Source of the DNA: Candidatus Altiarchaeota archaeon
GTDB lineage: Archaea; Altiarchaeota; Altiarchaeia; IMC4; SCGC-AAA252-I15
Direction of reading: 5' to 3'
Assembly (NCBI GenBank): GCA_043813075.1
Contig: JBDRLL010000003.1
Span: 125,811 to 189,810, forward strand
DNA: 64,000 nt
Shown here: positions 24,347 to 30,817 of the stretch, in pieces
How the letters are laid out: the number at the start of each line of letters is the position of its first letter
Numbering within the stretch: position 1 is the first letter of the stretch
Position numbers and translations under genes: made by a program
Notes under the pieces: model-generated
What the model saw: the letters and a program-made list of their open reading frames with translations, nothing else
Told to the model about the DNA's origin: nothing
Database searches by the model: none

Positions 24347-24724
24347 ATGACTAGTATGAGGGTCGTCAACAAGACCAGGAACAAGGTACTGAGCGAGGAT
24401 GCTGGAGTCAGGGAATCATTCCTTGGACGGCTGACTGGACTTATGATGCAAGACAGGAAGGACATAGTCATAAAAGTGCCGTGGGAGGGAATCCTAGAGG
24501 CCTCGATACACATGATGTTCATGAGGTACGGCATATCCGTAATATGGGCGGACTCTGACATGAAGGTCGTGGATGTGGAGAAGAATGCGAGGCCATTCAA
24601 CCCGTTTAAGCCTCGGACCTGGCGGACCTATAAACCATGCGGCCCTGCGAAGTACGTTGTCGAACTGGGAAAAGGCAGGTTAGGGGGAACCAGGCGGGGG
24701 GATGTCATCGAGTTTACCCACTGA
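24347..24724 (+). CDS. DUF192 family protein
   Basis: The size, together with ...RLTGLM..., SIHMMFMRYGISVIWADSDMKVVDV and AKYVVELGKG, is typical of DUF192 (COG1430). Confidence 0.7.
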   Translation: MTSMRVVNKTRNKVLSEDAGVRESFLGRLTGLMMQDRKDIVIKVPWEGILEASIHMMFMRYGISVIWADSDMKVVDVEKNARPFNPFKPRTWRTYKPCGPAKYVVELGKGRLGGTRRGDVIEFTH

Positions 24725-25469
24725 AACCCCTGCTCCTAAGGAGATATCCTATGCAGGCGCCTGAAACCATTGTTAACGCCAATGCTATGCCAATATCAAC
24801 GTAGGGTATCCTCCTCTCAGCGAGTATCCGGGGGGCCTCATCATAAACCAACTCGACTTCAGGGAATGTCGTTGAAGGCGCCGGCCCTACTGCAACATCC
24901 TCTTTCTTGTCCAAGTCAAGCCCATCCACTTCACCGGCTGCCATTATGTCTTCATACTCCATCATCCTATTTAGGGGAACATCATCCCGGCTTCGCCCGG
25001 CTTTTTTCTCAGCCTCCACGCCGGATTTGGCTAGTAAAAGCCCACCCCCATCGACAGGAGGGGCATCGCGTTTAGGCTCGCCAGCCTTAAATGACTGCTG
25101 GACTGCAAGCGGCTGTATGCTGACTATGTCTGCAAGGTGTGTGTGAAGGCTTATCATAGAGGCGCCCAACAGTAGGAGGCTTACACCAAGCATTATCCAC
25201 ACCTTGGTCTCAGCCGGGTTTAAGACACCCCTGCCCTTGTAAGTGAGCTTATAGTACTTCCACTTGGTGCCCCGCTCCACATGCTCTATCAGGCCGGCGG
25301 ACACAAGCTTGTCCAAATGCTCTTTTATGGTGGACGGGCTCATGCCCATCTCCTGAGCAAGGTCTGTGAGAGTCTTCTTATGGGACTCAATCCTCTTGAG
25401 TATCTCCACCCTAGTGTCGGCGGCCAACACCTTGAAGGTCTCCCTGTCTAACGTTATCTTGTCTGTCAT
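24714..25469 (-). CDS. ArsR-type winged-HTH regulator fused to a two-TM membrane module
   Basis: LAADTRVEILKRIESHKKTLTDLAQEMGMSPSTIKEHLDKLVSAGLIEHV is followed by a TM helix. About 130 non-hydrophobic residues and a second TM helix come after that. It is trimmed to the ATG at 25469. Confidence 0.7.
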   Translation of the reverse strand: MTDKITLDRETFKVLAADTRVEILKRIESHKKTLTDLAQEMGMSPSTIKEHLDKLVSAGLIEHVERGTKWKYYKLTYKGRGVLNPAETKVWIMLGVSLLLLGASMISLHTHLADIVSIQPLAVQQSFKAGEPKRDAPPVDGGGLLLAKSGVEAEKKAGRSRDDVPLNRMMEYEDIMAAGEVDGLDLDKKEDVAVGPAPSTTFPEVELVYDEAPRILAERRIPYVDIGIALALTMVSGACIGYLLRSRGFSG

Positions 25470-25578
25470 ATTCCAAGATGATACAACAACACTGTTATGT
25501 TCACGAACAGCAACAAAACAGCGACATACTCCCTCATAGATAAATAGAAGGAGGACGTATTTAAAGCAGTTTCGGTTT

Positions 25579-25598
25579 GTTTCGGCCAATGCCGAAAC
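25579..25598 (-). terminator. 8-bp stem-loop (gtttcggc-caat-gccgaaac) abutting the srp54 stop codon
   Basis: Perfect inverted repeat read directly. It touches the first base of the srp54 stop (25598-25600). Confidence 0.4.
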
Positions 25599-26911
25599 TA
25601 GACGCCGAAGCCCATCTTCTTCATCATCCGCTCCATCTTCCGGCCTCCACCCATCCCCTTCATAAGCTTCTTCATCTTCTTGTAGTAGTTCAAAAGGTCG
25701 CGGACGTCTTCTGGCCGCGTCCCGCTGCCGGACGCAATCCTGTCTATGCGGGTGCGCTTGATTGCGGACGGGTCATCCAACTCGTCACCGGTCATTGAGT
25801 CCATGATGACCTGGTACATCACGAGCTTGTCCTCCTGGAGGTCCATAAGCTCCTTGGGTATCTTAGCCTGGAAGGGGAGCATCTCCATCAGCTTGCTCAT
25901 GGAACCCATATTGCCCATCTGCTCCAGCTGCTGGTACAAGTCCCTCAACGTGAACTGGCCCTTCATCATCCTCTTGGCGGACTCCTCGTCGAAGTCGACT
26001 TCCATCGCCTTCTCCAGCAGGCCCTCGATGTCTCCCATACCTAGGAGGCGGGAGACGAACCTCTTGGGGTCAAATGGCTCTATGTCTTCAATGTGCTCGC
26101 CAACACCTATGAAGTAGACTGGCGCATTGGTTTCAGCGCAGGCTGCTAGAGACCCGCCGCCCTTGGCACTGCCGTCAAGCTTTGAGATGATGACCCCGTC
26201 TATGCTGCACGCCTCTGAGAAAGCCTTTGCCTGGTCGCCTGCACCCTGACCGATGGTGCCGTCCAGGACTAGGATGGTCTTGCTAGGTTTGACTTCCCGG
26301 TGTATCCTGTTGATGTCGTCCATAAGCTCCTTGTTGAGCTTGTGCCTGCCCTCCGAGTCTATGATCACGAGCCCCTCATTCTTGAACTGCTTCATACCCT
26401 GGTTGATTATGTTCAACGTGTCTTTCTCATCGTTCTCGCCGTAGAATGGGACGTGTATCTCCTCAGCCAGCTGCTTTAACTGGTCGTATGCCGCCGGACG
26501 GAAGGTGTCAGCGCATATGAGGCGCGGATTCAATCCCTTCTTCTTCACGTGGGACGCGAGTTTTGCGGCGGTAGTCGTCTTACCTGAACCCTGGACGCCA
26601 ACAAGGAGTATTCTGTCGCCGTCCTTCAAATCCAGTTCTACCCCAGCACCAACCAGGTCCACAAGCTCCTCATAGGTTATGCGCACGAGGTTCTCAGTCC
26701 TGTTGAGCATGCCTGGAGGCTTCTCCAGCAGGCCGCGCTCCTCAATCCTCTTCGACAAGTCAAGGACCAGCTTAACGTTCACGTCAGCGGATAACAGCGC
26801 CTTCTGTATCTCCTTAGTATACTCTCTGATGGTCTTCTTGTCCACCACAACCGCCTTCCTGAGGGTCTTAACCGCACCCTGGAGGCCGTCCTTGAGTTTT
26901 TCGAACGCCAT
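25598..26911 (-). CDS. srp54: Signal recognition particle protein SRP54
   Basis: GVQGSGKTTTAAKLA, DTFRPAA, and a Met-rich M domain with a C-terminal MGGGRKMERMMKKMG. Confidence 0.95.
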   Translation of the reverse strand: MAFEKLKDGLQGAVKTLRKAVVVDKKTIREYTKEIQKALLSADVNVKLVLDLSKRIEERGLLEKPPGMLNRTENLVRITYEELVDLVGAGVELDLKDGDRILLVGVQGSGKTTTAAKLASHVKKKGLNPRLICADTFRPAAYDQLKQLAEEIHVPFYGENDEKDTLNIINQGMKQFKNEGLVIIDSEGRHKLNKELMDDINRIHREVKPSKTILVLDGTIGQGAGDQAKAFSEACSIDGVIISKLDGSAKGGGSLAACAETNAPVYFIGVGEHIEDIEPFDPKRFVSRLLGMGDIEGLLEKAMEVDFDEESAKRMMKGQFTLRDLYQQLEQMGNMGSMSKLMEMLPFQAKIPKELMDLQEDKLVMYQVIMDSMTGDELDDPSAIKRTRIDRIASGSGTRPEDVRDLLNYYKKMKKLMKGMGGGRKMERMMKKMGFGV

Positions 26912-26965: not shown

Positions 26966-28237
26966 CTACTTCTCCCATATGTTTATGTTTTCCTTCCTCT
27001 TGGAAAAAGGATTCAACTCCAGTATTAGGGGGGTTATGAAGGCTATTAATGCCATTATGGAGTAGGGGAAGAAGAAGAATATGGCCAGCAGATGCCTCCA
27101 TGTTATCCTAGTCCACCTTAGGATGGATAGTAGGTTATAGGATAGGCCAAGTAGGAATGACGTGAAGCAGAATATGAAGACTGTGGTCATCGGGTACACG
27201 CCAGTGAGTGTGTTGTAGGAGTATTCAACCATCCCGTAGAGGGATATCCACCCGAAGAAATACTTGAGTACGCTGAATGAGAGGTAGTCGCTATATTTAG
27301 CGAAGTATATTATGTATCCGTTGGTTATCTGGTATAGAGAGATTGGAAGTGCTATGAAACCGTGTATGAACCAGTATAGTTGGGTTGGTATCCCGTAGAA
27401 TCCTATTGCCCCGTACTGGGGGTTGAATGGGACGTCCGAATGTTTTTTAACAACCTGTATCGTACCCCTTCCCCAACGGAACCTCTGGCGTAAGAGGGAC
27501 TTTATGTCCTGAGGCACGTGCGTGTACATGACTGCGTCAGCCATCAGCATTCGGTAGCCGGCCTTCCTCAGACGCAGGCCAACCTCGAAATCCTCTGAAA
27601 GCGTATCCCTTGTGAATCCGCCGATCTCTATTAGAGCGCTCTTTCGGAATGCTGTGAATCCTGGAAGCAGGTAAGTGGAGTCCAGCTTATCGCATATGAG
27701 ACGCCATGTCGAGGACATCAAGTACTCCAGGTCCTGGAACCAGACCAGAATGTTGTTGTTTACGATAGCCCTTATGACGCCGGAGACGGCGCCAACACGC
27801 TCGTCTGAGAATGGTGCCACCAGTTTGACCAGGGCGTCCGCGTTGAGCTTCGAGTCCGCGTCGACTACGACCACTATCTCGCCCTTAGCCTCGTTCAGGG
27901 CAGTGTTTATCGCATTTGACTTTCCACCGTGATCTAGGCTGATGAGATTCAGTCGGCTGTCGGAGGACATCACTTGCTTGACTAATGCCGCGGTATCGTC
28001 TGTCGAACCGTCGTCCACCACGATAACCTCCTTGACGCCGTCATAATCGGAGTCCAACGCATTCTGGATGGATTCCCTGATTATACCCGCCTCGTTGTGG
28101 GCTGGGAGTATTACTGAGACTGGGGGGAATATTGGTTCCGCTGGAGCTCTTCTCCGAGGAGTGAAGAAGAGGATTAGCCATGAGGAATATAGCACTATCA
28201 TGAATGAAAACAGCACTAGAAGTATCTCCTCAATCAT
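26966..28237 (-). CDS. Processive family-2 glycosyltransferase (membrane-embedded synthase)
   Basis: LPAHNEAGII, VVDDGSTDDT, DADS, SEDFEVGLRLRKAGY and QRFRWGRG (QxxRW), with N- and C-terminal TM helices. Confidence 0.85.
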   Translation of the reverse strand: MIEEILLVLFSFMIVLYSSWLILFFTPRRRAPAEPIFPPVSVILPAHNEAGIIRESIQNALDSDYDGVKEVIVVDDGSTDDTAALVKQVMSSDSRLNLISLDHGGKSNAINTALNEAKGEIVVVVDADSKLNADALVKLVAPFSDERVGAVSGVIRAIVNNNILVWFQDLEYLMSSTWRLICDKLDSTYLLPGFTAFRKSALIEIGGFTRDTLSEDFEVGLRLRKAGYRMLMADAVMYTHVPQDIKSLLRQRFRWGRGTIQVVKKHSDVPFNPQYGAIGFYGIPTQLYWFIHGFIALPISLYQITNGYIIYFAKYSDYLSFSVLKYFFGWISLYGMVEYSYNTLTGVYPMTTVFIFCFTSFLLGLSYNLLSILRWTRITWRHLLAIFFFFPYSIMALIAFITPLILELNPFSKRKENINIWEK

Positions 28238-28262
28238 GTTCTATTATCGCCTCCAACGCCTA

Positions 28263-28943
28263 TTAATCACAGATGGACAGGTTGCTTGTGCTGCACAGTA
28301 TCTCGGTCATCTGCTCCCTGTCGAGCAGGCTGCAGTGCGCTCTGTCACCGACAACAACACACGGGTACTCTGTCACATTGTATATCCCAAGCAGGACGTT
28401 GACTGAAGGCAGGTCCAGGTCCGCGTCAAAACTGAATACCGCTATCTCAGGGTCTATCTTCTGGTTGAAGTAGTTGAGCACGTAGGACTGCTTGTCGCAG
28501 TCCGGGCAGAATTCGCTCCTACGGTAGAAGTAGAGTATCTCCGTCTGGTTCATGTCGCACTGTTGCTTCATCTCCTTCAGCAGGGACAGGTATATGACTT
28601 CCTGCCGGTTGAACTTCTTCTTCTGGATGTTGTAGTATGGGTCGTTCATATATTCCCTGGTCAGCTCGCGGTAGGAATCTATCTTCTCGCCCATCTTCCA
28701 TATCTTGGTGTCTAAAAGCTTTATGTTGGTCTCCAATGCTATGCAGCTCGCGTTCTCGCCGAAGACGCGCATCATTGTGGTCAACGCCTGCATCTCCTCA
28801 AAATCCTCGAGTATCTCTGCCATGCGCTCGTCCAGAGACTCCTCGCGCATTGAGTTAAGGTAGACGTTCAGCGAATAGACGCTCGCGAATATTATCAGTG
28901 TTATCACAAAAGCCTTCAGGAATATGGACTTGCCTACCTCCAT
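28263..28943 (-). CDS. Membrane-anchored thioredoxin-fold protein with a CPDC active-site motif
   Basis: An N-terminal TM helix and a helical region are followed by ILYFYRRSEFCPDCDKQS...EYPCVVVGD. That segment carries a CxxC motif and a candidate cis-Pro loop. It overlaps the upstream GT2 gene by 10 nt. Confidence 0.55.
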   Translation of the reverse strand: MEVGKSIFLKAFVITLIIFASVYSLNVYLNSMREESLDERMAEILEDFEEMQALTTMMRVFGENASCIALETNIKLLDTKIWKMGEKIDSYRELTREYMNDPYYNIQKKKFNRQEVIYLSLLKEMKQQCDMNQTEILYFYRRSEFCPDCDKQSYVLNYFNQKIDPEIAVFSFDADLDLPSVNVLLGIYNVTEYPCVVVGDRAHCSLLDREQMTEILCSTSNLSICD

Positions 28944-30181
28944 TTTACCTCTTTTCTCGTCAACACGCTGTAGAATGAGTTAAGCCAGAACATCTGGTAG
29001 AACACGAAGAAGAACACGAATCCTATGAAGCCTAGTACATTCTCCCTTATCCTCCTGCCCAGCGTATTGAAGCTAAGTTTGGTGAGTATCACGGTGATGC
29101 ATATCATCGTGAAAGCCATTGTGGTGAATATGTCTATGGACAGTGGATCCAACTCCAAGACGAAGTTGAAGTGGCTTAAGTCGAAGTTCACCAGACTCAG
29201 GTAGTTTATGTTCTTCAGAATCTTTGATGAAAACAGGTAAATGGAGTAGATGAAGAGCATCATGCCCATTGTTATGAGAGAGTAGTTGAATGGCACGTAA
29301 ATGCCGAAGAGCCCCATCTTGCGGTTGAACATCATGTCCTTGTGCTGCCAGACAGTCAGAAGCGATCCGGAATACCACCTCTTCCTCTGCTTGAAGAGGG
29401 ACTTGATGCTGGAGGGGACTATCGTGGACACCGAGGTTGAAAGGCAGAATGACAGCTTATAGCCGGCCTTCTGTATCCTGAAGGCTATCTCAAGGTCTTC
29501 GGTTATGTTCGTCTCGTCAAAGCCGCCCAGCTCTGTGAGAACGCTCTTACGGTATATGCTGAAAGGCCCTGGAGTCACGTGCATTATGTTGAGGAAGGAT
29601 AGTATCTTCAGGGAAATCGACAATCCAACGACGTATTCAACGTCTATAACCTTCTCAAGGAAGTTTTTAGGCTCACGGACGTTAACCCTCACGCTCACAG
29701 AACCCATCTTCGGGTCGCTGAAGTAACCGACCGTCTGTGAGAGTATGTCAGGCTTTACTAGGCTATCCCCGTCCATGCAGGCGATGAGTTCTCCGGAAGC
29801 GCGTCTTATGGCCTCATTTAGGCTGTAGCTTTTACCCTGATTCTCCACCCGATCTATGAATACAATGTTCAGAAACCTGTTTTGGGATATGAATTCCTTG
29901 ACTAGGGCGCTGGTATTGTCAGAAGACCCATCGTTTACCACTATGACCTCATATAAATCCTTCGGGTAGGTTATATTGGATAAGGAAATCAGAGCTGGTA
30001 GTATACCCTCCTCCTCATTGTATGCTGGCAGTATTATGCTTACCTTGGGTTTAGCCTCCTGACACCCCACTTTGGCGAATAACTGCCTCCTCTTCTCGAG
30101 GATTATGAGCAATACAGTCACCACAAAGAAGGTGGACATGAACCAGACGGTGAGGACCATTGTGGAGTAGATTACGTTCAT
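28934..30181 (-). CDS. Processive family-2 glycosyltransferase (second paralog)
   Basis: LPAYNEEEGI, VVNDGSSDNT, DGDS, TEDLEIAFRIQKAGY and KQRKRWYSG, with flanking TM helices. Confidence 0.85.
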   Translation of the reverse strand: MNVIYSTMVLTVWFMSTFFVVTVLLIILEKRRQLFAKVGCQEAKPKVSIILPAYNEEEGILPALISLSNITYPKDLYEVIVVNDGSSDNTSALVKEFISQNRFLNIVFIDRVENQGKSYSLNEAIRRASGELIACMDGDSLVKPDILSQTVGYFSDPKMGSVSVRVNVREPKNFLEKVIDVEYVVGLSISLKILSFLNIMHVTPGPFSIYRKSVLTELGGFDETNITEDLEIAFRIQKAGYKLSFCLSTSVSTIVPSSIKSLFKQRKRWYSGSLLTVWQHKDMMFNRKMGLFGIYVPFNYSLITMGMMLFIYSIYLFSSKILKNINYLSLVNFDLSHFNFVLELDPLSIDIFTTMAFTMICITVILTKLSFNTLGRRIRENVLGFIGFVFFFVFYQMFWLNSFYSVLTRKEVKWR

Positions 30182-30229
30182 CGTAAATCGGCCTTATTAG
30201 ATAGGATACCTCCATTTATATAATACAGT

Positions 30230-30817
30230 ATGGCGTTAAAAGGGCTTAAAACCAGGGAAAACAGGCTGGAACTGCGCAGGCAGTTGGTTCATATGACGGG
30301 GGGAGTGCTTATCAGCATAATGGCCTATCTGATGAAGCCGCTGTTGGGCTGGCTCATCGTATTCCCTGTCCTGGGGGGCCTCGCCTGGTTCCTGTCCGCA
30401 CCAAAGCTCTTCCCCAACCTCAAGGACTCTAATTCCATACTATTCCACTTCGAGCGTGAAGAAGACGTGAGGACACTACCCTACAGGGGGGCGATATACT
30501 TCGGGTTCGGGATGCTTATACCCCTGGCTCTGCTGCCTACAGAACCTGCCTGCGCGGCGATAATAGTATTGAGTGTGGGGGACGCACTATCCACAATAAT
30601 AGGAAGACTCTACGGTAGGGTGAGGATAGGAGGCAAGAGTCTTGAGGGATTCGCGGCCTTCGTGATTTCAAGCTTTATCGCTGCACTAGCATACGTCGAC
30701 CCTAAGACAGCGATCGTTTTCGCAGTGATAGGGGGTGTGGTGGAGTTAATACCGCACGCCAACGACAACATATCAATACCAGCCGCACTGACCCTGGCAT
30801 ACAAGACACTACTTTAA
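30230..30817 (+). CDS. CTP-dependent polyprenol (dolichol) kinase family membrane protein
   Basis: SVGDALSTIIGRLYGRVRIGGKSLEGFAAF matches the cytidylyltransferase/dolichol kinase family signature. The protein is multi-TM. Confidence 0.7.
   Translation: MALKGLKTRENRLELRRQLVHMTGGVLISIMAYLMKPLLGWLIVFPVLGGLAWFLSAPKLFPNLKDSNSILFHFEREEDVRTLPYRGAIYFGFGMLIPLALLPTEPACAAIIVLSVGDALSTIIGRLYGRVRIGGKSLEGFAAFVISSFIAALAYVDPKTAIVFAVIGGVVELIPHANDNISIPAALTLAYKTLL

Follow-up and report, generated by a model that had tools for sequence, protein, structure and literature searches.

What is a thioredoxin-fold protein doing between two membrane glycosyltransferases in an archaeal genome? The question is raised by a locus in a 64,000-nucleotide stretch of DNA (hereafter the window) from a Candidatus Altiarchaeota archaeon (assembly GCA_043813075.1, contig JBDRLL010000003.1, positions 125,811 to 189,810 of the forward strand). 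In this locus the genes for two family 2 glycosyltransferases, GT2-A and GT2-B, flank that of a thioredoxin (Trx)-like protein, and a kinase-like neighbor, DK, lies alongside (Table 1). A prior sequence-only reading of the locus had seen in it two processive synthases bracketing a membrane-anchored thiol-disulfide oxidoreductase, which could couple polymer export to oxidative folding or act as a redox switch on the synthases, next to a polyprenol kinase. The sequence evidence shows this to be a real and conserved feature with a candidate function. The pairing of a GT2 with the Trx-like protein is conserved across two domains of life, and we tentatively favor, at somewhat less than an even chance, the reading in which these genes specify a two-component membrane glycan synthase, comparable to IcaA/IcaD, PgaC/PgaD or BcsA/BcsB but equipped with a new accessory subunit.

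The coordinates of the open reading frames (ORFs) bear out the arrangement as it had been described: the three genes lie on the minus strand, the GT2-A and Trx-like genes overlap by exactly 10 nucleotides (nt), and DK is divergent from GT2-A at a distance of 48 nt from the start of the latter. The Trx-like gene is separated from that of GT2-B by 25 nt. The sequence motifs that had been quoted, namely DGDS/DADS, TED/SED, KQRKRW/QRFRWGRG, ILYFYRRSEFCPDCDK and EYPCVVVGD, are likewise all found in the translations.

A GT2 and Trx-like gene pair shared by Altiarchaeota and Patescibacteria

Homologs of the Trx-like protein come almost entirely from metagenome-assembled genomes of Candidatus Altiarchaeota, with a distant branch (23-28% identical) in the Patescibacteria (Paceibacteria/Parcubacteria). 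The trio of GT2-A, Trx-like protein and GT2-B recurs in Altiarchaeota even where the middle protein is only 43-70% identical, and the expected synteny in relatives is thereby confirmed across this phylum; a GT2 together with a Trx-like gene is found in all of the related Altiarchaeota loci that were inspected. Of 61 Altiarchaeota genomes, 48 have the Trx-like gene, including all 13 of high quality, and the gene is missing only from one deep family (f9, 0 of 8 genomes).

For the Patescibacteria, 348 loci were confirmed by genome scan (Patescibacteria-only alignment A2), and 80 loci were kept for neighborhood counts. A full-length GT2 gene lies upstream of the Trx-like gene on the same strand in 78 of these 80, mostly with a gap of -10 to +20 nt. 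The GT2s in question share 28-33% identity with GT2-A and are nearer to it than to GT2-B; neither GT2-B nor DK is found in the 80 loci. The occurrence of the pair in this phylum is patchy, with 9 of 301 genomes (3%) phylum-wide as against 54 of 151 (36%) in one order, and its genomic context comprises rpsB, tsf, pheST, prfA and rpoD.

In a maximum-likelihood tree of the GT2s, the clades followed by a Trx-like gene (ALT_A, the 'DK-operon' type, type C and PAT_A) form one radiation, and the GT2-B sequences cluster apart from them as a clade with a long branch (1.96). GT2-B is never followed by its own Trx-like gene; in the trio loci, it is the gene that comes after the Trx-like one. Based on the tree and the Patescibacteria loci devoid of GT2-B, we identify GT2-A and the Trx-like protein as the conserved core. 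The same two lines of evidence rule out the trio as the ancestral unit, with GT2-B being a later addition. Hence, the dual-synthase bracket of the sequence-only reading survives as a syntenic trio within the Altiarchaeota, but its second synthase is specific to that lineage. Many Altiarchaeota lineages (loci L100-L106) have a single GT2 with its partner, and three loci (L002, L113 and L114) carry an extra inverted pair made up of a Trx-like gene without the CxxC motif and a type-C GT2. Separately, we observed a fourth, very divergent GT2 type adjoining the Trx-like gene in some Altiarchaeota (L107:3704-5026, L109:1744-3006, L110:1626-2882 and L112:3808-5085), which scores 140-166 bits against the family profile and sits on a branch of 3.09; its gene often points away from the Trx-like gene and sometimes stands beside a GT2-B-type gene.

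Architecture of the Trx-like partner

An AlphaFold2 (AF2) model of the Trx-like protein, built from a 141-sequence alignment (predicted local distance difference test score, pLDDT, 88.1; predicted template-modelling score, pTM, 0.78), shows helices at residues 5-61, 64-98 and 102-129 followed by a Trx domain, with the transmembrane (TM) segment at 8-28 running directly into the stalk. Foldseek matches for this model cover the head only and are to thioredoxins (target-normalized score, TMt, 0.65-0.83; root-mean-square deviation 1.7-2.5 Å over about 94 residues). The family profile in turn matches the thioredoxin 3ul3 (E 2e-4) with both the CxxC and the cis-Pro aligned. The model, the structural matches and the profile match together uphold the earlier description of the middle protein as a membrane-anchored Trx fold on a helical stalk.

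Conserved positions of the TM helix line up along one face (F8, A11/F12, I14/T15 and I18/F19), with Thr15 reaching 99% conservation (4.3 bits) across Altiarchaeota and Patescibacteria. This helix is more than a generic anchor. None of the curated families claims the protein: the scores are 18.9 bits for TraF (PF13728; cut-off 23) and 17.4 bits for TrbB (TIGR02738; cut-off 132). An exhaustive profile search recovered 1,419 family representatives at 50% identity, 1,110 of them with E<=1e-10. The Trx-like proteins are a sizeable but nameless family with neither a Pfam nor an NCBIfam model. An elongated version is seen at L101:3100-4335 (+) in a complete-looking Altiarchaeota genome (G007), where the Trx-like ORF has 411 amino acids (aa), 10 cysteines and about 190 aa extra at its C-terminus.

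Cysteine covariation and the fate of the CxxC motif

Eight cysteines are present in the Trx-like protein, and their distribution across the family is highly patterned. C67 and C129 are invariant in all 142 sequences of the combined alignment, including one paralog lacking the CxxC, and the AF2 model places the two at the stalk's membrane-distal end; a diverged copy at locus L110 has a glycine aligned at position 67. C195 and C204 are positioned opposite one another in the beta3-beta4 hairpin; of 56 sequences, 50 have the two together, 6 have neither, and none has just one. The presence pattern of C217/C225 is 54/1/1, and C143 and C146 are mutually exclusive. This all-or-none covariation, taken together with the secondary-structure positions on which the pairing is likewise based, suggests that the residues are disulfide partners in an extracytoplasmic, disulfide-bonded head. 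We also considered a four-cysteine metal site formed by C67, C129 and the CxxC and rejected it: C129 precedes strand beta-1 and the CxxC follows it, which would place them at opposite ends of the strand, and the CxxC-less paralogs retain C67 and C129.

The CxxC, whose conservation in orthologs the sequence-only reading had set as a refuting test, is retained in 126 of 141 orthologs, namely in all 85 from Patescibacteria (as C-x-D-C) and 41 of the 56 from Altiarchaeota; it is, however, replaced by a C-x5-C in the other 15 and lost in several Altiarchaeota lineages and paralogs. In the C-x5-C versions, C143 takes the place of C146, moving the N-terminal cysteine three residues upstream. Thus, among the 141 orthologs the C-terminal C149 is invariant and the variable residue is C146, the normally nucleophilic one. 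The motif is gone from the protein at L103 (where it reads S-x-S in the only copy of the genome), from that at L116 and from the type-C paralogs, all of which still adjoin a GT2. By these patterns in the alignments, the CxxC is ancestral but dispensable, with at least three independent losses. As the CxxC-less copies continue to adjoin a GT2, the pairing of the two genes is independent of redox chemistry, and the CxxC is more likely a redox-sensitive or structural disulfide than the site of an obligatory oxidoreductase.

A DsbA-like gene adjoins the pair in 20 of the 80 Patescibacteria loci. At L061:2833-3543 (-) and in the 19 others, it is divergent and lies just upstream of the GT2 (PF13462, E 1e-17, with PF01323 also matching); its product may be the oxidase that forms the disulfides of the partner. 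The source genome of the window itself codes for two DsbA-like (PF13462) proteins, at C32:16236-16691 (+) and C27:8701-9189 (-), one of them within a 637-aa ORF, and a search of this genome for VKOR found none.

The GT2 proteins

Both GT2s match the Pfam GT2 families with E values of 1e-23 to 1e-32 (GT2-A, 7e-31; GT2-B, 7e-32). For both, the top NCBIfam model is PgaC_IcaA (TIGR03937; 163.5 bits for GT2-A and 141.6 bits for GT2-B), with NodC also among the best; further matches are to Pfam GT21 (the ceramide glucosyltransferase type) and to NCBIfam HpnI/CruG, which use lipid acceptors. Each carries the synthase motif set D, DxD, (T/S)ED and Q(R/Q)xRW, and in 103 aligned GT2 sequences the catalytic motifs show no variation: D83, D136-x-D138, E227-D228 and Q264-R265-x-R267-W268 in the numbering of alignment A5. 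As this alignment and the AF2 model of GT2-A both lack Met1, the true residue number is the A5 number plus one. The QxxRW, TED and PGPFS-x-YR motifs resemble those of polymerizing enzymes.

The AF2 model of GT2-A (pLDDT 93.4, pTM 0.90) displays an N-terminal TM helix, a GT-A domain, interface helices with the QxxRW motif on the second (IF2), and 2-3 C-terminal membrane helices, giving 3-4 membrane helices in total. In Foldseek comparisons it is matched by the hyaluronan synthases (HAS) CvHAS of Chlorella virus (7sp7; query-normalized score, TMq, 0.72) and XlHAS1 of Xenopus (8smn; 0.68), as well as by BcsA (0.57-0.64), yeast Chs1 (0.61) and PcManGT (6yv7; TMq 0.65, TMt 0.76). Because HAS, BcsA, Chs1 and PcManGT are its best full-length structural neighbors, the modeled GT2-A can be placed in the membrane-embedded synthase group, with a predicted HAS/BcsA-like fold. 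GT2-A, which is conserved as a pair with the Trx-like protein, is an inverting membrane-embedded GT2 of the HAS/NodC/IcaA/BcsA type. GT2-B shares 25-33% identity with GT2-A and is a diverged, Altiarchaeota-only paralog of the same synthase type that was added later. The genome has no other full-length membrane GT2 of the QxxRW type.

Gene fusions and linked deacetylases

Several rare architectures throw further light on the pair. In one sequence, P0178, the GT2 and the Trx-like protein are joined in one uninterrupted ORF of 717 aa, and the Lys-rich junction between them matches the C-tail of the GT2s, which is basic (net charge +2 to +3.5), as well as the N-terminus of the partner, which is likewise rich in lysine. 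In two others, P0096 and P0108, the Trx-like protein is fused C-terminally to a PIG-L/LmbE domain with an intact PHxDD motif; the PIG-L-fused Trx-like gene begins 2 nt after its GT2. At L092:5627-6514 (+), downstream of the Trx-like gene, PIG-L is encoded separately, as a protein with a TM anchor and an N-terminus rich in lysine. A PIG-L fusion is located at L098:4001-5428 (+), and both fusions and the L092 PIG-L protein share a C-terminal cysteine pair of the form RC-x8-10-CEV.

As PIG-L is an N-acetylglucosamine (GlcNAc) de-N-acetylase fold, the fusions, along with PgaC/IcaA and NodC as best matches of the GT2s, hint by analogy at a GlcNAc-containing product that might be modified on the outer face. 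Poly-N-acetylglucosamine (PNAG) is modified on that face by IcaB or PgaB. No CE4/PgaB-like deacetylase was found among the immediate neighbors in the 80 loci, and the only CE4 protein of the source genome is unlinked, being encoded on another contig.

Membrane topology

To orient the GT2s, net charges were counted family-wide for each segment (Table 1). Since basic residues flank the last GT2 helix at both ends, it may lie in the plane of the membrane, as IF3 does in hyaluronan synthase, in which case the true TM helices would number three. A location of the GT2 C-terminus in the cytoplasm fits the Lys-rich junction of P0178 and the Lys-rich N-terminus of the partner, and would then place the stalk and head of the partner outside; the cysteine pattern independently supports an outside location for the head.

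The locus and its neighborhood

Table 1. Genes, protein features and charge-based GT2 topology (positions refer to the window)
Feature	Position	Strand	Size or net charge	Basis, predicted side or remarks
GT2-B	26966-28237	-	423 aa	
Trx-like middle protein	28263-28943	-	226 aa	
GT2-A	28934-30181	-	415 aa	
DK (kinase-like neighbor)	30230-30817	+	195 aa	
TM helix of partner, residues 8-28, FLKAFVITLIIFASVYSLNVY	28860..28922	-		translation
Three-helix stalk of partner, residues 29-129	28557..28859	-		AF2; invariant C67, C129 membrane-distal; invariant K108, E115
Trx-fold head of partner, residues 130-226	28266..28556	-		beta-alpha-beta-alpha-beta-beta-alpha; cis-Pro194; Cys pairs 146/149, 195/204, 217/225
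CPDC motif of partner, residues 146-149	28497..28508	-		N-terminus of helix alpha-1; translation
QRKRW motif of GT2-A, true residues 265-269	29375..29389	-		interface helix; Q, R, R, W invariant in A5
GT2 N-terminus			no K/R	outside
GT2 after TM1			+1.6 to +2.3	inside
GT2 before helix 291			about +1.8	inside
GT2 loop 319-351			-2.2 to -0.2	outside
GT2 loop 370-382			+2.2 to +2.7	inside
GT2 C-tail			+2.0 to +3.5	inside

The DK protein by itself has no Pfam or NCBIfam match at threshold. Its homologs bear the automated JGI names 'dolichol kinase' or 'diacylglycerol kinase (CTP)'; 3 of 23 match PF01148 (best E 1.7e-5), and the family profile matches CdsA (4q2e, E 6e-3) with the motif GD..A..G..GR...KSLEG aligned. 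From these sequence relationships, DK is best regarded as a polytopic membrane protein that is a distant member of the CdsA/dolichol-kinase superfamily, which depends on cytidine triphosphate (CTP), and as a putative lipid kinase or cytidylyltransferase. Of 20 further Altiarchaeota loci, at least 10 have DK next to the module. For instance, the GT2, Trx-like and DK genes are co-directional with overlapping ends at L100, L102, L104 and L105, and the Trx-like and DK genes are adjacent at L103. Hence, the linkage of this neighbor to the module holds across the Altiarchaeota, but its naming as a polyprenol kinase draws on a remote similarity to the CdsA/dolichol-kinase superfamily. Another PF01148-type gene is present elsewhere in the source genome.

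The surrounding genes of the window have housekeeping functions (SRP54, purN, folP/folC and a Na+/H+ antiporter). The SRP54 gene (window 25598-26911, -) borders the GT2/Trx-like cluster in many Altiarchaeota loci, even where the cluster itself has been rearranged (L001, L002, L103, L107, L111 and L112); in some of these the flanking ORF, of about 437 aa, is unlabelled but presumably SRP54. Next to it, at 24714-25589 (-), the window encodes an ArsR-type helix-turn-helix protein (PF01022, E 3e-11) with hydrophobic segments and a long acidic or Gly/Pro-rich region, a composition that suggests a membrane-tethered regulator.

A model for the module

In the two-component synthase that we tentatively favor, GT2-A would be an inverting GT2 dependent on uridine diphosphate (UDP)-sugars, with its catalytic domain on the cytoplasmic side and a membrane part corresponding to a minimal hyaluronan/cellulose-synthase fold. 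The partner would be a single-pass type-II protein whose conserved TM helix packs against the synthase within the membrane, with the stalk holding the Trx-fold head on the outer face (the periplasm in the double-membraned Altiarchaeota). Here, the head would be stapled by disulfides, with C67-C129 being universal and C195-C204 and C217-C225 found in this subfamily. We infer from the close coupling of their genes in both domains of life, the P0178 fusion and the conserved face of the TM helix that the two proteins form a physical complex, and that the partner is required for activity, for handling the product as it leaves the membrane, or for both. The CxxC would be an ancestral and probably redox-sensitive or structural disulfide that is not essential to the partnership. 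The product would most likely be a GlcNAc-containing beta-glycan (PNAG- or chitin-like). GT2-B, which joins the operon only in the Altiarchaeota, may add a second sugar or linkage, and the presence of a linked gene resembling those for CdsA/dolichol kinases hints at a step involving a lipid phosphate, for instance the supply of a primer or anchor.

A bolder extension of this model, which we regard as decidedly unlikely, is that the TM helix of the partner completes a HAS-like pore in trans, taking the place of HAS TMH5 after IF3 (as the P0178 fusion would allow), with the head acting as a redox-sensitive cap that takes up or gates the glycan as it emerges into the periplasm.

Several observations weigh against the two-component synthase. 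Both GT2s fall far below the equivalog cut-off of PgaC_IcaA (422.3 bits). A self-contained translocation channel of 6-8 TM helices was sought in the GT2-A model and was not seen; going by that model, 3-4 helices would be too few for GT2-A alone to form a channel of the HAS/BcsA type; to build one, it would have to oligomerize or recruit the partner's TM helix. The synthase-type motif set that the sequence-only reading saw in both GT2s is borne out, but processive synthesis and export are putative. Moreover, NodC, which has the same architecture as GT2-A, releases short oligomers inside the cell. The P0178 fusion is seen on a single contig and is for that reason supportive rather than decisive. 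The deacetylase linkage is rare (2 of the 150 representatives listed and 1 of 80 loci), and no PIG-L protein was found in the source genome. As for the outside topology, charges are only weakly biased about the TM helix of the partner itself, and PIG-L enzymes are usually cytoplasmic. Finally, both membranes of Altiarchaeum consist mainly of diglycosyl archaeol, with mono- and triglycosyl forms being minor (PMC4460559), and this dominance offers an obvious alternative job for two GT2s.

The strongest rival explanation, although we deem it unlikely, builds on that last point: GT2-A and GT2-B would be glycolipid synthases, the former making monoglycosyl archaeol and the latter adding a second sugar to yield diglycosyl archaeol, with DK as a CTP-dependent archaeol/prenol kinase and the Trx-like partner assisting on the outer leaflet. 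Such a role would suit a module that is near-universal in its phylum, lies amid housekeeping genes, holds the genome's only full-length QxxRW-type membrane GT2s and includes a lipid-kinase-like gene in its operon. The additional matches to GT21 and HpnI/CruG, the few TM helices with no obvious channel, and the archetypal PIG-L substrate, which is a GlcNAc-lipid, point the same way. However, the many Altiarchaeota lineages noted above carry a single GT2 with its partner, the pair recurs in Patescibacteria with a patchy distribution, and the matches in sequence and fold to PgaC/IcaA, NodC, CelA and HAS are stronger than those to lipid-acceptor GT2s; moreover, we know of no precedent for an outer-face protein partner of glycolipid synthases. 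A different use of a lipid carrier, which we hold to be very improbable, would have the GT2s act as non-processive transferases extending a dolichol-phosphate-linked glycan for N-glycosylation or the cell surface, in the manner of Pyrobaculum PcManGT, with DK supplying the dolichol phosphate. PcManGT is indeed the best match in both sequence and Foldseek searches (6yv7, E 5e-24 and 8e-18, with the TMt given above), the membrane domain is minimal, and a dolichol-kinase-like gene is in the operon; yet the sequence alignment with PcManGT ends before the QxxRW helix, the QxxRW, TED and PGPFS-x-YR motifs are like those of polymerizing enzymes, no other N-glycosylation genes (AglB or a flippase) are adjacent within the window, and DK is absent from the Patescibacteria loci.

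The remaining alternative concerns the partner rather than the sugar, and we consider it rather unlikely: the Trx-like protein would be a catalytically active thiol-disulfide oxidoreductase, its CxxC coupling polymer export to oxidative folding or redox-switching the synthase. The placement of the CxxC at the N-terminus of helix alpha-1, opposite the invariant cis-Pro, is the canonical active-site geometry, and the motif is kept as C-x-D-C throughout the Patescibacteria orthologs and in most Altiarchaeota copies, including diverged ones; the DsbA-like neighbors and the weak TraF/TrbB matches add to this. Against this stand the variability of the nucleophilic C146, with the C-x5-C form in 15 of the 56 Altiarchaeota orthologs, the retention of the GT2 pairing by the L103, L116 and type-C proteins after loss of the motif, and scores under the cut-off for every oxidoreductase family. 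In addition, inspection of the outward-facing, extracytoplasmic parts of the GT2s revealed no conserved cysteine that could be the substrate or redox target. Since the CxxC is shifted in those 15 orthologs and lost in several lineages, an oxidoreductase or redox-switch role as an obligatory function is unsupported.

Relationship to known systems

The two-component synthase reading invites comparison with the bacterial synthases. IcaA, with 412 aa and four predicted TM segments, depends for its full activity on IcaD, the product of the gene directly behind its own, and IcaB is a surface deacetylase (PMC7674160). In the small number of its membrane helices, GT2-A is thus comparable to IcaA. The module resembles IcaA-IcaD and PgaC-PgaD in having a GT2 of about 415 aa with the D/DxD/TED/QRxRW motifs and about four hydrophobic helices, directly followed by a gene for a small membrane protein; the linkage to a surface GlcNAc deacetylase is also shared but is here only occasional. 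It differs in that the partner is unrelated to IcaD or PgaD and has one TM helix against their two, to which is added a 200-residue stalk and Trx-fold ectodomain. Further, the linked deacetylase belongs to the PIG-L/LmbE rather than the CE4 type, and the window holds no equivalents of PgaA, PgaB or IcaC. With HAS and BcsA, its best full-length structural matches, GT2-A shares the GT-A domain, the interface helices and the QxxRW motif, but it has 3-4 membrane helices where HAS has 6 and BcsA 8, lacks the PilZ domain and is only about 15-23% identical. BcsB is likewise a single-TM partner with its bulk on the outer face; the partner described here has the different fold of a helical stalk and thioredoxin. 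Taken together, the system works most like IcaAD, PgaCD and BcsAB and yet is a member of none of them, because the accessory architecture is new and the GT2s score under the PgaC/IcaA threshold.

PcManGT (6yv7), described as a crenarchaeal non-processive mannosyltransferase of N-glycan synthesis, resembles GT2-A in being an archaeal, minimal membrane GT2 with a minimal cellulose-synthase-like fold, although the sequence match is restricted to the GT-A domain. We know of no Trx-fold partner of PcManGT, and the literature citing it gave no detail on its membrane helices. On the side of the partner, an N-terminal membrane anchor and a Trx fold with CxxC and cis-Pro are shared with TraF/TrbB, ResA/CcmG/TlpA and BdbA, with TraF/TrbB of F-type conjugation being the only family matches, weak and under the cut-off. 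Unlike these membrane-anchored Trx proteins, the partner has a unique three-helix stalk, the invariant C67-C129 pair and a variable N-terminal cysteine. A GT2 is also combined with a Trx-like gene in the glycocin (sublancin) operon sunA-sunT-bdbA-sunS-bdbB; however, SunS is a soluble S-glycosyltransferase in a bacteriocin cluster, whereas the present synthase is membrane-embedded and set among housekeeping genes. A glycocin-type cluster was accordingly rejected for this locus, which has no precursor peptide or transporter. In the literature on Altiarchaeota or Patescibacteria that deals with glycosyltransferases, thioredoxin, PgaC or chitin synthase, we found no description of the pairing.

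Implications

What defines the synthase-dependent glycan systems (for instance those for cellulose, PNAG, alginate and hyaluronan) is a GT2 along with its accessory subunits, and an accessory family with a Trx fold is undescribed among them. If the partner indeed completes the pore of its synthase, the module would represent a new architectural class of synthase-dependent glycan secretion, common to double-membraned archaea and ultra-small bacteria. The hosts belong to two poorly understood groups, the biofilm-forming, double-membraned Altiarchaeota and one order of Patescibacteria, in which little is known of envelope biogenesis. As the pair is self-contained and made up of two genes, its function is directly testable by heterologous expression. 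The occurrence of DsbA-like proteins without VKOR bears, in addition, on how an anaerobic archaeon makes periplasmic disulfides.

The biological meaning would depend on the product. Should it be a PNAG- or chitin-like polymer, it would be a candidate for the biofilm matrix of Altiarchaeum; should it be a glycolipid, the module would supply the long-missing headgroup synthase genes for glycosyl-archaeol, the dominant lipid of this organism. The module is also clearly an example of genes shared across domains by organisms that cohabit groundwater.

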